Shown: in pieces, positions 52,966-58,768 of the stretch
Numbering within the stretch: the stretch's first letter is position 1
How the letters are laid out: each line of letters begins with the position of its first letter
Virus record (IMG/VR): IMGVR_UViG_3300032245_000473
Span: 10,077 to 74,076 of that record
Direction: 5' to 3' (one strand)
From: a virus
Length of the DNA: 64,000 nt
Position numbers and translations under genes: made by a program
The notes under the pieces: model-generated
Seen by the model: the letters and a program-made list of their open reading frames with translations, nothing else
Database searches by the model: none
What the model was told of the DNA's origin: nothing

Positions 52966-53442
52966 ATGGGCTACCGAGGCTCCCACCAGCCTGACACGAC
53001 GGATGACTCGCCCCGGTTCCATGAACTGGACAAGGCGATGCCTAACTTTTATCAGCGGCCCCATGACTACGTGTGGCATCTGGATGACGAGGACCATTCG
53101 ATCACCAAGCACCTCCACCCCGATCAACTGGGTGGGGCTACGCAGGCTGTTCAGCAGGCTTTGCGGGCAAGGGGGAACCCCGATGCACGGGTGATGCTGT
53201 ACCGGGCTGTCCCCAAGGGCGTGACCGAGATCAACTCGGGCGATTGGGTCACCACGTCCCACCACTACGCCAGACAGCACGCTGCCTTGGACGATGACCC
53301 TCGGAACGACATGGATGTTCTGGCCAAGCAGGTGCGTGCGAACGAGATCACCTTTGGGGGTAACGACGCTTACGAGTTCGGATACGTCGGTTCCACAGTG
53401 AACGGGAGACGGCTCCCTCGTTCCCGCCGCCAGTCACGTTGA
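52966..53442 (+). CDS. ADP-ribosyltransferase-like domain (R...E type, polyvalent-protein-like)
   Basis: YRGSHQP...LYRAVPKG...INSGDWVTTS..YARQH...EFGY. Confidence 0.65.
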   Translation: MGYRGSHQPDTTDDSPRFHELDKAMPNFYQRPHDYVWHLDDEDHSITKHLHPDQLGGATQAVQQALRARGNPDARVMLYRAVPKGVTEINSGDWVTTSHHYARQHAALDDDPRNDMDVLAKQVRANEITFGGNDAYEFGYVGSTVNGRRLPRSRRQSR

Positions 53443-53459
53443 CGGAGTAGCATCAGACC

Positions 53460-53486
53460 ATGGGCCAGTCCAAGGAGCAGTACTGA
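53460..53486 (+). pseudogene. 8-codon leaderless mini-ORF MGQSKEQY, relic matching gene 54235
   Basis: TAGCAT-N6-ATG; 18-bp identity with 54361-54378; TGATG couples to 53486. Confidence 0.6.
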
Positions 53487-53914
53487 TGCGCGGTACTCGC
53501 CGCCTTGCCTACTACCACGGCACCTCTCTTCCCAATGCCATGTCGATCATGCAGGGGGGATTCAGCACTGATACCCCGGAATCAAACGGCAGGACGTGGG
53601 GTCCCGGTGTGTACTTGGGGAACACCGACGCCATGGCACGTGGTTATGGGGACCATGTAGTTGAAGCGGAGGTCGATGATTGGGTTCACGACTTCTTGGC
53701 GCGTGAGCCTCAGCAAGAGCATTACGCCGGGGACCCTCGGGCTACCCAGCCTTCTCCGTGGGGTGACCCGCCTATGGAACTGGAAGAAGTACTCAAGCGG
53801 GAAGGGTTTGAGGGAGTTCAGCACCGAACTGGCGAGGGGCGGGACCTAGAGACAGTGGTCTTTGACCCTAAGAGGGTCAAGCCCGTTGCTATCCAAGGTC
53901 CTTCCTTTACATGA
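53486..53914 (+). CDS. ADP-ribosyltransferase (H-Y-E/PARP-like)
   Basis: YYHGTS..NA.SI..GGF......WGPGVYL....ARGYG..VVEAEV...ETVVFDP. Confidence 0.8.
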   Translation: MRGTRRLAYYHGTSLPNAMSIMQGGFSTDTPESNGRTWGPGVYLGNTDAMARGYGDHVVEAEVDDWVHDFLAREPQQEHYAGDPRATQPSPWGDPPMELEEVLKREGFEGVQHRTGEGRDLETVVFDPKRVKPVAIQGPSFT

Positions 53915-54225
53915 AGGACCCGCAGCGTATCCATGAGATGGACCCCGCTGTCTTTCAGAAGACATATGCAGTTGGAGTTCCGTACGCTCCTGCTAACTGG
54001 GACACCATCACCGACGATGAAGGTTTCTGGGAAGGCCCAATGATCGTCCACAAGGGGGAAACGGATTGGACTTCAGACCTCAACGTCTTGCGTGAACACG
54101 TAGCCAAGCACGGTATTCAAGACCCCGTGCGTGTGAGCGCAGCGACCGGAGCAGTGATTGATGGCCACCATCGTGTACATGTTGCACGTGAGACAGGTCA
54201 ACCTGTCCGTTACCGTCTGGTGTAA
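53911..54225 (+). CDS. ParB/sulfiredoxin-like domain protein
   Basis: L..HV.KHGIQDPV.V......IDGHHRV. Confidence 0.8.
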   Translation: MKDPQRIHEMDPAVFQKTYAVGVPYAPANWDTITDDEGFWEGPMIVHKGETDWTSDLNVLREHVAKHGIQDPVRVSAATGAVIDGHHRVHVARETGQPVRYRLV

Positions 54226-54234
54226 CATCTCGCC

Positions 54235-54648
54235 ATGGGTTACCGCATCGCACGTGAGGACTGGCAGTCGCTAGATCCTATTGCCTCTGGTTCAACTGCG
54301 GGCGGGCCGAATGTGTACGACGACGGCGTGCGTACCGTCCCGTGGTACCCACGCCCCGGTCAGTCCAAGGAGCAGTACATCGTCAGCGAAGCCATGCGCC
54401 TCATGACTGTTCCTTCCGACCAGATTCGCAAGATTCGGCCGGTGACTGAGCGACCCCCGATGCCCACCGATGGGTACGTGCGTGAGCCATTGACCATTGA
54501 AGAGATTCTGAACGTGAACCGGTGGGCACCGCAGGTTCGTTCGTGGATCAGTGGCGTTCCTCTCAAGCCCCGCAAGTCCGATGTTCAGGAGAACATGTTC
54601 TCCGGTACTGCACGTAACATCGGTATGACCGCAAACCCGGCTTTGTGA
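54235..54648 (+). CDS. hypothetical late protein
   Basis: Leaderless TAACAT-N6-ATG; VYD...PW...IR.IRP...IL.V. Confidence 0.65.
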   Translation: MGYRIAREDWQSLDPIASGSTAGGPNVYDDGVRTVPWYPRPGQSKEQYIVSEAMRLMTVPSDQIRKIRPVTERPPMPTDGYVREPLTIEEILNVNRWAPQVRSWISGVPLKPRKSDVQENMFSGTARNIGMTANPAL

Positions 54649-56999: not shown

Positions 57000-57067
57000 G
57001 CGCCCGACTTGAAGGCTCAAAATGCGATAAGACACAGTTCAAAGGGAGAAGGTTGGTATTTGTATGA
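56996..57067 (+). pseudogene. 23-codon bridging mini-ORF containing KTQFK
   Basis: GTGA and ATGA coupled; 14-bp duplication of the 57064 N-terminus. Confidence 0.45.
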
Positions 57068-57723
57068 GTCTGAATGAGACACAGTTCAAATGGATGAACG
57101 TCAACAACCCTGCTCCGTTGTCAATGGGGTTCCATGGGACCAAAGCAGACATCTCAGGAGACATCAAACCTTCAGCATCAACGGGTGCGGACGCGGCAGG
57201 AATAGCGTTGACTGACAAAACGTATTTCACACCTCTAGAAGAGGAGGCGTGGGGATACGCAAGTGGCACTGGAAGGGGTCAGGGACGCCCGCGCGTGTAC
57301 CAAACCGCTCCTGTTGGTCACCAATCCTTGGACACTAACCATGCAAATAGCCGTCCGGTTGTGCCTATCGGTAAGAATCTTGAATGGCCAGAATCTTATA
57401 CGGAGCAGACTGCCCCTCGGACAGTCGATTCACAGAAGATAACTGACACTCATTGGACTCCCACCCCTAGACACAAGGGCGGTTGGGTTCAGGGCACCCT
57501 TCCACACATCAACTGGCACGAGTTTAATACCCCTAACTGGGTGCAATACAACGCCGAAGGTGAGGCTCACGACGATTTCGGTCAGCGAATTGAACCTGCA
57601 ACGGCTCAAACTGATGGAGGAACCCCCAAAATGGACACCCCTCGCAGTTTGGACACTCCGTTGCCCGGATTTGAGTCAACTACTCCAAAATCGGCCCCGA
57701 CCTTGTCACATATGCCATTATGA
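57064..57723 (+). CDS. Arr-like ADP-ribosyltransferase
   Basis: FHGTKADI.GDI.P...TYFT.....AW.YA...G.GRPRVY...P.G closely follows rifampin ADP-ribosyltransferase motifs. Confidence 0.75.
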   Translation: MSLNETQFKWMNVNNPAPLSMGFHGTKADISGDIKPSASTGADAAGIALTDKTYFTPLEEEAWGYASGTGRGQGRPRVYQTAPVGHQSLDTNHANSRPVVPIGKNLEWPESYTEQTAPRTVDSQKITDTHWTPTPRHKGGWVQGTLPHINWHEFNTPNWVQYNAEGEAHDDFGQRIEPATAQTDGGTPKMDTPRSLDTPLPGFESTTPKSAPTLSHMPL

Positions 57724-57833
57724 GCCTCAATCCCGATCAGTTCAAGGAACATTTGGCCCTTAGACAGCAACTTGGGGCCATAATCGGCGAAAATCGTCGG
57801 TTGTTTCCTACTTGGAACAAGCACGGGTTATGA
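57720..57833 (+). CDS. 37-aa mini-protein/relic MSLNPDQFK...
   Basis: ATGA coupled at both ends; N-terminus matches 57064 (MSLNETQFK). Confidence 0.55.
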   Translation: MSLNPDQFKEHLALRQQLGAIIGENRRLFPTWNKHGL

Positions 57834-58165
57834 GAGGCCCACGTCGTTGGAGTGCCGACTTTGGGGAAATTGTGTACTCCCCGGTTGATAACGGTGGGAG
57901 CATCCCAGCCCACGAAGTGGCGGCACATACGCATGGGGGTGACCGCATCGGTCACCTCCGTTGGAACCGCCACGAGATTGGTGACGTGGATGTCCACGAG
58001 GACTTTCAGCGCCAAGGTATAGCCACCTCCCTGTTTCAGCACGCCAAGATCGTTGCTGCTGAGAACCCCCGAATCCCTGCCCCGAAGCACAGCGCCGACA
58101 GAACCGACGCTGGTGACGCGTGGGCACGCTCGGTTGGTGGGCGGCTCCCACGGCGGTCGTCGTAG
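57830..58165 (+). CDS. GNAT acetyltransferase
   Basis: IGHL.W..EI..VDV..DFQRQGIATSL...HS..RT.AG.AWA. Confidence 0.85.
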   Translation: MRGPRRWSADFGEIVYSPVDNGGSIPAHEVAAHTHGGDRIGHLRWNRHEIGDVDVHEDFQRQGIATSLFQHAKIVAAENPRIPAPKHSADRTDAGDAWARSVGGRLPRRSS

Positions 58166-58208
58166 TGGTACTGTTACATCATGCAACTTCTGATACGGAG
58201 GTATCACT

Positions 58209-58433
58209 GTGGCCGTCAACCAGACCAGATCCATGTCCGGCGAGTTCAGTCAGGGCACTATCGACTCGTCCTACATGAGCATCATCCCTGACCGGGGTGG
58301 TGTCCTCGGCAACGTCCCGACGGAGCGCATGTCGTGGCCGATCTTTGCTCAGGTGGAGCAGCATCGTGACCCGAAGTTCGCTACCGATTGCTCCTGCCAC
58401 GCAGGCAAGTACGTGGAGCATTACAAGCGATGA
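58209..58433 (+). CDS. conserved small late protein
   Basis: SD GGAGG; MAVNQTRSM...G.D..Y...PD.G. Confidence 0.65.
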   Translation: MAVNQTRSMSGEFSQGTIDSSYMSIIPDRGGVLGNVPTERMSWPIFAQVEQHRDPKFATDCSCHAGKYVEHYKR

Positions 58434-58768
58434 AGCCATCTCGTCGTGTTCAGAACACGGCATGGACGCCATTTCAAACGCCCTCGCAGGCTCACTTCGC
58501 CAACCGTACCGGCGGTTACAGCCCCGGTACGGACCCTCATGAGGCTGTAGGCCGAAAGGTAGCCCAACGCCTCCTTCAGTATGGTTGGAACGAGAATCGC
58601 GCCCTTCGTGCTGACCCGTTGACTCGCCGCATGCATATGCAGCAGGTCGCAGACCTTAGAGTGCTGGACGACCCAGAACTCAGCGACCAAGTGTGGAACT
58701 ACGCTACGCGCGTCCTCGGTCAACGTGAGACGCGCACTGAGCGTTTCGACAACGACTTCCACGACTAA
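58430..58768 (+). CDS. hypothetical protein
   Basis: ATGA coupling; starts MKPSRR. Confidence 0.6.
   Translation: MKPSRRVQNTAWTPFQTPSQAHFANRTGGYSPGTDPHEAVGRKVAQRLLQYGWNENRALRADPLTRRMHMQQVADLRVLDDPELSDQVWNYATRVLGQRETRTERFDNDFHD

Follow-up and report, generated by a model that had tools for sequence, protein, structure and literature searches.

What kind of locus gathers several putative ADP-ribosyltransferases (ARTs), a metallopeptidase and an acetyltransferase into a run of very small genes, how does its gene content change, and where would its products act? The question is raised by positions 52966-58768 (the island) of a 64,000-nucleotide window, comprising bases 10077-74076 of the 74,076-bp IMG/VR record IMGVR_UViG_3300032245_000473. 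The record derives from an uncultivated phage, probably an actinobacterial one, with a genome of roughly 100 kb. The island is read here, with moderate confidence, as a hypervariable accessory-gene region composed of solo effector enzymes of the types found in polyvalent proteins. Illegitimate recombination at gene starts adds, removes, swaps and truncates its cassettes, leaving chimeric first codons and gene relics behind.

The island contains 13 small, co-oriented plus-strand open reading frames (ORFs), including one fragment (57720). They start at 52966, 53486, 53911, 54235, 54648, 55219, 55953, 56601, 57064, 57720, 57830, 58209 and 58430, and genes are named by these positions (Table 1). 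Four encode candidate ARTs: 52966, whose single domain is termed X, 53486 (ART1), 54648 (ART2) and the Arr-like 57064. About 12 mostly stop/start-coupled genes had been counted in the initial annotation of this DNA, and coupling is indeed prevalent, most adjacent ORFs being joined by ATGA or TGATG overlaps or separated by gaps of 1-9 nt. The encoded proteins are 74-244 aa long, with at most one recognisable domain each. Atypical codon usage, also reported initially, is partly borne out: GC content at third codon positions (GC3) is lowered to 0.51-0.59 in the cassettes against 0.63-0.80 in core and anchor genes, and rare codons peak in 55219 and 55953, at up to 5-6 per 100.

Table 1. Features of the island and its borders (window coordinates)
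Feature	Position	Strand	Remarks
Fibre-like gene	50911-51594	+	weak Phage_base_V match (0.047)
Two small membrane proteins	52414-52767 and 52764-52964	+	second holin-like (phrog_9752 holin, 2.2e-4)
Domain X, stand-alone protein, 158 aa	52966-53442	+	predicted R-S-E-type ART-like fold
Scar 1, 8-codon relic	53460-53486	+	start of 54235 joined to 21-nt copy of 54235 interior (54358-54378); direct repeat D1
ART1, H-Y-E ADP-ribosyltransferase-like (ART-PolyVal/PARP-like), 142 aa	53486-53914	+	candidate, from Pfam and alignment
ParB/Srx-like protein, 104 aa	53911-54225	+	weak call; DGHHR motif
Anchor gene, 137 aa	54235-54648	+	between two insertion hot spots
ART2, ART-like, 187 aa	54648-55211	+	YHGTS and GGY motifs; weakest ART call
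Stand-alone gluzincin-like metallopeptidase, 244 aa	55219-55953	+	HExxHxxH ... EG[VI]AxGY
Unassigned cassette, 201 aa	55953-56558	+	shared with L004; no family match
Unassigned cassette, 132 aa	56601-56999	+	shared with L004; no family match
Scar 2, 21-nt degenerate copy of Arr-like codons 4-10	57027-57047	+	in upstream spacer; direct repeat D6, 90% identity
Arr-like ART (candidate)	57064-57723	+	residues 1-100 with H24/Y54/D90, then 120-aa Pro/Thr-rich tail
Scar 3, 37-codon 5' gene fragment	57720-57833	+	intact gene (89 aa) elsewhere in L001; ATGA coupling at both ends
GNAT acetyltransferase, 111 aa	57830-58165	+	Acetyltransf_1, 23.8 bits
Anchor gene, 74 aa	58209-58433	+	in all eight related contigs examined; GC3 0.80
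Variable gene in slot between anchors 58209 and 58793	58430-58768	+	likely start ATG 58430 with ATGA overlap, inferred from translation
Cys-rich anchor, 204 aa, right border of island	58793-59407	+	53-100% identity in eight related contigs

Evidence for exchange is provided by L001 and L003, phages 98-99% identical to the window, in which the island differs in six ways. Within 6.5 kb, L001 displays one swap (ART1 lies upstream of X), three gene absences (the ParB-like gene, the Arr-like gene and the GNAT), one truncation (an out-of-frame deletion of 368 nt at the 5' end of 55953) and one transposed fragment. The fragment is an 88-bp segment (96.6% identity, L001 7207-7293) located between the Arr-like gene and the GNAT in the window; in L001 it begins an intact 89-aa gene 6 kb upstream. 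In the 20 kb before the island, only three small changes separate the window from the near-identical phage, namely the replacement of one ~430-bp segment (675 bp there) and two insertions of ~120 bp. Window positions 32749-33177 (~430 bp against ~675 bp) are the sole sizeable difference from the near-identical phage G001 in the 20 kb upstream of PolA.

The rearrangement joints of L001 coincide with gene starts and can be read at base level, making the island a clean natural example of effector-gene trading between phages, with six rearrangements in 6.5 kb. In L001, the six codons that open the ParB-like gene (MKDPQR) stand at the start of X, and the X sequence follows them. Three scars are present in the window itself (Table 1); the relic of scar 1, whose junction was compared with L001, is now coupled to the next gene via TGATG. 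Peptides shared between the N-termini of island proteins (MKDPQR, MGYR, MRGxRR, MSLNxxQFK) were considered as capsid-targeting tags and rejected. They belong to at least four unrelated classes, and between two near-identical phages the N-terminus of X differs, conservation within X beginning only at Y3. The shared N-termini look like recombination joints instead.

More distant relatives were fetched with the Cys-rich gene 58793, yielding seven IMG/VR contigs and one short metagenome contig. Genes 51790, 54235, 58209 and 58793 are present in every related IMG/VR locus that spans them, and the first ~550 aa of 59428 and gene 63408 are recurrent across the relatives too. Both 54235 and 58209, initially described as conserved, were found in 7/7 spanning IMG/VR relatives; 54235 shows identities of 43-99%, a GC3 of 0.68 and a ratio of non-synonymous to synonymous polymorphism (pN/pS) of 0.04. 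Between these anchors the gene content is not invariant. The ARTs, the zincin (55219) and the ParB-like gene are all missing from L004-L010, and L004 carries cassettes of its own, including a 410-aa HExxH protein with weak similarity around the motif. Cassettes 55953 and 56601 are shared with L004 at 74-77% identity (tblastn), and the 58430 gene is partially conserved in L004 and L006, with other genes found instead in L005-L010. The synteny comparison proposed in the initial annotation, together with the L001 differences, thus upholds its description of a modular, rapidly exchanged set in which anchors are kept and cassettes vary. In distant relatives, 54235 and 58209 abut or lie <200 nt apart, an endolysin and a holin-like gene occupy the slot between 51790 and 54235, and tail-fibre genes lie upstream in the same operon. 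This layout indicates two insertion hot spots around 54235 in the lineage of the window.

A TANNNT hexamer is located 6-7 nt upstream of the 54235 start in the window (54220-54237; TAACAT-N6-ATG), L001, L004, L005 (8230-8249) and L007 (8400-8420), an arrangement that from its sequence could possibly represent a leaderless promoter and transcript. L009 and L010 have a GGAG ribosome-binding site upstream of the 54235 homologue instead. A promoter and terminator scan returned fewer sites than shuffled sequence and is uninformative on timing; a search for a repeated intergenic motif found none.

Pooled pN/pS between the window and the near-identical phage is 0.24 for the island, a figure based on only 43 substitutions, and 0.03 for the core. 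The island is accordingly coding and constrained, more loosely than the core. This relaxed constraint, the three gene relics and one truncated gene, and the lower codon adaptation would also suit mostly decaying passenger DNA without current function. Such decay is very improbable given that the main ORFs are all intact in both near-identical phages, that catalytic motifs are retained, that synonymous changes lie above the neutral expectation, and that the X, zincin and GNAT families are conserved across many phages.

Domain X was initially taken for an R...E-type ART-like protein, an assignment strengthened by its invariant residues and predicted fold. Searches of Pfam with X gave no family. 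In PHROG, X matches (2.4e-32) a family of 472 positions that bears the label 'ParB C-terminal domain', at the C-terminal end of that family. There are 61 X homologues of similar length, none annotated by Pfam, and R80, T97/S98 and E137 are invariant among 50 X sequences. In the AlphaFold2 model of X (predicted local distance difference test score 85), R80, T97/S98 and E137 map to strands 75-82, 94-96 and 138-140, respectively. The Arg thus sits on strand 1, the Thr/Ser pair where strand 2 ends and the Glu where strand 5 begins, a placement that suggests the R-S-E layout of ARTs. Foldseek comparison of the model with the PDB gave weak E-values, with ARTs among several of the best matches. Structural matches of X include the DNA-targeting ART Scabin and the RES, ParT, MbcT and Rhs ART toxins. 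Single-sequence and profile searches of PDB sequences with X returned nothing significant. Matches to the model in BFVD include a Gordonia phage Skog protein with an acetyltransferase annotation, proteins of the mycobacteriophages Phabba and Myrna, and proteins annotated as polyvalent-associated or MuF_C-containing. The widespread domain labelled 'ParB C-terminal domain' is probably an ART-like enzyme. X is present in 178 cultured phage records, 159 of them from mycobacteriophages (tblastn), and in 123 IMG/VR stretches; a search of five related phage records found none. Its occurrence in cultured mycobacteriophages and Gordonia phages makes the ART-like identity directly testable. Two further regions, L004:8900-9295 and L095:1077-1646, were considered as X-like ARTs from a motif guess and rejected (hhalign probability <1%).

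In longer homologues, X is usually the C-terminal module and is fused to ART-PolyVal (many cases), GNAT (many cases), ParB_N, PBECR1, PBECR3 or MuF_C, in proteins spanning 390-2004 aa. Proteins of 1282-1830 aa combine X with PBECR3 and ART-PolyVal, or with PBECR1 and MuF_C, and X is directly joined to MuF_C in one 1302-aa protein. The fusion partners of X elsewhere are thus separate genes of the island, which supports the notion of a polyvalent protein in pieces and agrees with the polyvalent domain repertoire initially ascribed to the locus. Since polyvalent and MuF-linked effectors of other phages join these domain types to X in one polypeptide, the island proteins are best read as solo versions of that repertoire.

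The fusion of X to ParB_N, together with ParB-methyltransferase genes neighbouring X in 8 loci, could also indicate that X, the ParB-like protein and perhaps the other ARTs act on phage or host DNA, in modification or anti-restriction. The resemblance to Scabin, the frequent location of X next to terminase genes and a DpdA-like gene downstream in relatives are compatible with such a role. It is nonetheless unlikely: L001 keeps X yet has lost the ParB-like gene, and X is fused equally often to GNAT and ART-PolyVal.

The remaining three candidate ARTs are of the H-Y-acid type. ART1 matches the Pfam families PARP (1.9e-5), ART-PolyVal (2e-4) and Exotoxin A (6e-3), all under the curated cut-offs. 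Its alignment to ART-PolyVal (PF18760; 22.5 bits, cut-off 31.2) covers positions 7-133 of 140, and H11, Y43 and E122 are retained when it is aligned to a true ART-PolyVal domain. A six-frame search of its own genome with PF18760 and PDB sequence searches with 53486 returned nothing and nothing significant, respectively. ART2 matches DUF3990 (0.029) and has only 2 homologue clusters. It shares the YHGTS motif with ART1 (BLASTP), and one Atlas cluster, at 0.90, carries ART-PolyVal on 20% of its members. H54 and Y81 are present in ART2; at the expected acid position there is an S, or a D if the alignment is shifted, and its one homologue does not conserve this position. A 99% identical ART2 is present on a 102-kb contig. 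The Arr-like protein matches Arr-ms (PF12120) at 6.5e-4, with 20.3 bits against a cut-off of 25. Like Arr (PDB 2HW2), with which it aligns over Arr residues 18-87, it keeps the H/Y/D residues; it also aligns with 9IAF, and nine Arr-ms clusters are among its nearest neighbours in the language-model Atlas (~0.92). Unlike Arr, it is phage-borne, falls under the family cut-off and carries a long C-terminal tail (Table 1). The gene is present neither in L001 nor in any other relative, and for the protein tblastn and an IMG/VR scan were empty and PDB sequence searches gave nothing significant. The four ART-like proteins proposed initially are accordingly all called here, with uneven support: 54648 is the weakest, its third catalytic residue being ambiguous. 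From sequence and alignment, ART1, ART2 and the Arr-like protein are candidates for the ADP-ribosyltransferase fold.

The acetyltransferase assignment of the initial annotation holds, and its HExxH peptidase is a putative zincin. In 55219, the HExxH residues H127, E128 and H131 and the downstream Glu ligand E172 are invariant in 15 sequences. Among the homologues found, the family is essentially confined to stand-alone proteins; 55219 did not match the Pfam polyvalent metallopeptidase model, and its profile returned nothing significant in a PDB sequence search. A distant homologue is encoded by L095 (IMGVR_UViG_3300032282_002092), an unrelated 73-kb phage with a GC content of 50%. In L095:100-8600 and in L096, the zincin homologue lies within a run of co-oriented unassigned genes (190-490 aa) that includes a second HExxH protein of 494 aa; the run may be a comparable effector array. 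The 57830 GNAT (PF00583) scores above the curated cut-off of 20.7 bits, and its acetyl-CoA motif, RQGIA, is present. L009 and L010 carry the GNAT upstream of 51790, and in two unrelated phages, L012 and L014, it directly follows X; tblastn identities across these phages are 45-51%. The ParB/Srx-like assignment of 53911 stands in part: seven partial matches to PHROG ParB-like and ParB-methyltransferase families (best 2.5e-5) and the DGHHR motif favour it, and it fails against Pfam ParB_N (PF02195), with no match at E 0.1 and an empty six-frame genome search. PDB sequence searches with 53911 returned nothing significant.

Tight coupling of gene pairs, and the RES, ParT, MbcT and Rhs toxins among the structural matches of X, could suggest that the ARTs are toxins of toxin-antitoxin, abortive-infection or superinfection-exclusion modules, with small neighbours as antidotes and a benefit against rival phages. 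The clade containing ART-PolyVal occurs in toxin-antitoxin systems as well (Iyer et al., 2017, PMC5512222). The partners are unstable, however: ART1 is followed by the ParB-like gene here and by X in L001. The zincin next to ART2 has its own stand-alone family and occurs in L095 and L096 without an ART2 homologue, and family searches of the island proteins detected no repressor or antitoxin domain. A toxin role is thus quite unlikely.

Polyvalent proteins were defined by Iyer, Burroughs, Anand, de Souza and Aravind (2017, PMC5512222), who noted that many of their domains also occur solo, for example as solo GNATs among mycobacteriophage late genes, and described how small ORFs encoding domains of this kind cluster in the vicinity of a large polyvalent gene. 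The 'new system' of the initial annotation is for this reason not upheld. What is new is the probable ART-like identity of X, the presence of four putative ART-fold genes within 5 kb and the base-level record of cassette exchange. The island resembles polyvalent proteins in its repertoire of ART (H-Y-acid type), GNAT next to ART, ParB and metallopeptidase domains. It differs in that every island protein is single-domain, so that the definition of at least two effector domains per polypeptide does not apply, and in that its genes are not located beside portal or MuF genes. In addition, its zincin is stand-alone and fails the Pfam polyvalent model, and X has no Pfam family. As in hyperplastic or accessory phage regions (actinophage mosaicism), variable cassettes lie between anchors, with junctions at gene boundaries, relics and lower codon adaptation. 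Unlike in the usual accessory region, one enzyme superfamily is unusually dense, with the four ART-fold genes.

Phage T4 likewise has several ART genes and a variable small-gene locus in which alternative genes share 5' ends. The T4 ARTs belong to the R-S-E Alt/VIP2 clade, and Alt and the internal proteins have a capsid-targeting leader that is cut by the prohead protease. In the island, by contrast, the first codons that genes have in common belong to several unrelated groups and mark recombination joints. The P1 Dar proteins are also a multi-gene set of accessory proteins, among them DdrB, which combines a ParB-like part with a metallopeptidase (Iyer et al., 2017, PMC5512222). Packaging of the P1 proteins was shown experimentally.

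A rival reading, that of the initial annotation, has the island proteins synthesised late, packaged in the capsid and injected along with the genome, as a multi-gene equivalent of a polyvalent protein comparable to P1 Dar or to T4 Alt and the internal proteins. X is joined to MuF_C and occurs inside polyvalent proteins of 1282-2004 aa; it lies ~375 nt upstream of the large terminase gene in 51/79 IMG/VR loci and within or beside the structural modules of Myrna and Pupper; and the relatives' operon contains tail-fibre and endolysin genes. Capsid deployment has also been argued for the solo GNATs of mycobacteriophages (Iyer et al., 2017, PMC5512222). On de-replication, however, only 3-4 of 11 X lineages adjoin packaging genes, and in cluster E mycobacteriophages the solo X gene belongs to a block of small, leftward-oriented genes at the right end of the genome. 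The island itself follows the replication genes and is ~40 kb from the portal in G002, a relative of 107 kb that is complete and has terminal repeats. The island yielded no MuF, portal-binding or capsid-targeting element, and the N-terminal peptides form at least four classes, at least one of them demonstrably a recombination joint. Delivery of the set from the virion is therefore doubtful, and packaging of at least some island members is a lesser, though real, possibility. Of the interpretation first given to this locus, modular exchange and the polyvalent repertoire are supported; for packaging, neither linkage to head genes nor a capsid-targeting element was found.

The hypervariable accessory-gene reading is supported by the rearrangements between the window and L001, and the domain calls are backed by independent tools. 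In this scheme, two insertion hot spots would flank 54235 within a co-directional operon that in relatives also contains tail-fibre and lysis genes. The lineage would have collected single-domain cassettes, namely four putative ART-fold proteins (one R-S-E-like X, two ART-PolyVal-like H-Y-E proteins and one Arr-like protein), a gluzincin, a GNAT, a probable ParB/Srx protein and several unassigned proteins. By analogy with the arguments made for polyvalent proteins and with the known T4 ARTs, the enzymes would act on macromolecules of the host or its defences, either modifying these with NAD+ and acetyl-CoA or cleaving them, to the benefit of infection. The proteins appear rather more likely to be made in the infected cell, like T4 ModA/ModB, than to be carried in the capsid. 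Several points weigh against the favoured reading. The ParB call and all but one of the four ART calls score below curated cut-offs, ART2 may lack its catalytic acid judging by its alignment, and few substitutions underlie the island pN/pS. The late-type neighbourhood in relatives and the frequent location of X beside terminase, portal or structural genes elsewhere would fit virion delivery equally.

It is interesting to speculate that the island is a disassembled polyvalent protein, whose solo enzymes are loaded into the capsid and co-injected. X would then be an unrecognised R-S-E ART family, mis-annotated as 'ParB C-terminal domain' in about 180 cultured phages, and the common module to which other phages fuse ART-PolyVal, GNAT or ParB domains, and near-identical phages would swap cassettes to match host defences. 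As a whole this picture is a minor possibility. With the island, the possible counter-defence repertoire of actinobacterial phages grows by four candidate NAD+-using enzymes, a zincin and a GNAT.

The record is open-ended, terminating within an ORF, with a completeness of 76% (CheckV). The left end of this fragmentary contig may be chimeric; bases 1-150 of the record (G000) form an AT-rich start unlike the remaining genome. Comparison of the island with INPHARED phages (megablast and blastn) gave no DNA match and thus no cultured DNA relatives, and a scan for the anchor gene across bacterial and archaeal genomes revealed no prophage relatives. PolA is ~32% identical to Streptomyces phage PolA. 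The first 10 kb of the record contain the portal and endolysin genes, followed by structural genes and then by a replication and recombination module (DnaB, helicase, phosphoesterase, PolA, UvsX-like, Cas4-like nuclease, RusA). Gene 50513 matches the PHROG 'sporulation protein' family and is not called WhiB. After the replication module come the fibre-like gene 50911, gene 51790, the two small membrane proteins and the island, all on the plus strand.

The fibre-like gene is an apparent structural gene directly after the replication module. Its N-terminal ~60 aa are common to genes preceding collagen-like tail-fibre genes in L007 and L009, and towards the C-terminus it is similar to the beginning of a collagen-like fibre protein of 1024 aa in L004. 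In L004, the 107-kb relative, the collagen-like fibre genes are separated from the 51790 homologue by an HNH-type endonuclease-like gene (4341-4742) that is not in the window. Of the two membrane proteins, 52764 is conserved in L004; endolysin and holin-like genes fill the same slot in L007-L010, so that the slot just upstream of the island is the lysis-cassette slot of distant relatives.

Downstream, the right end of the record (window 63890-64000) lies inside an Ala/Gly-rich ORF with 20-nt tandem repeats. Beyond the position of this end, L003 (16100-17473) and L004 (14140-15516) encode a protein of 457-458 aa with a C-terminal match to the PHROG 'queuine tRNA-ribosyltransferase' family (8.9e-25); from this match it may be a DpdA-like enzyme inserting 7-deazaguanine into DNA. 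A small AP2-like gene follows; the window record ends earlier. Within the window, 59428-63411 encodes a large protein of 1327 aa. The version in relatives is ~560 aa long, with only the first ~550 aa kept, and the C-terminal ~770 aa are lineage-specific; PDB sequence searches with this part returned nothing significant. Residues 640-860 resemble stand-alone proteins of 229-236 aa in L008 and L010 and also phrog_5313, and a ~500-bp segment at 61368-61881 is divergent between the window and L001.

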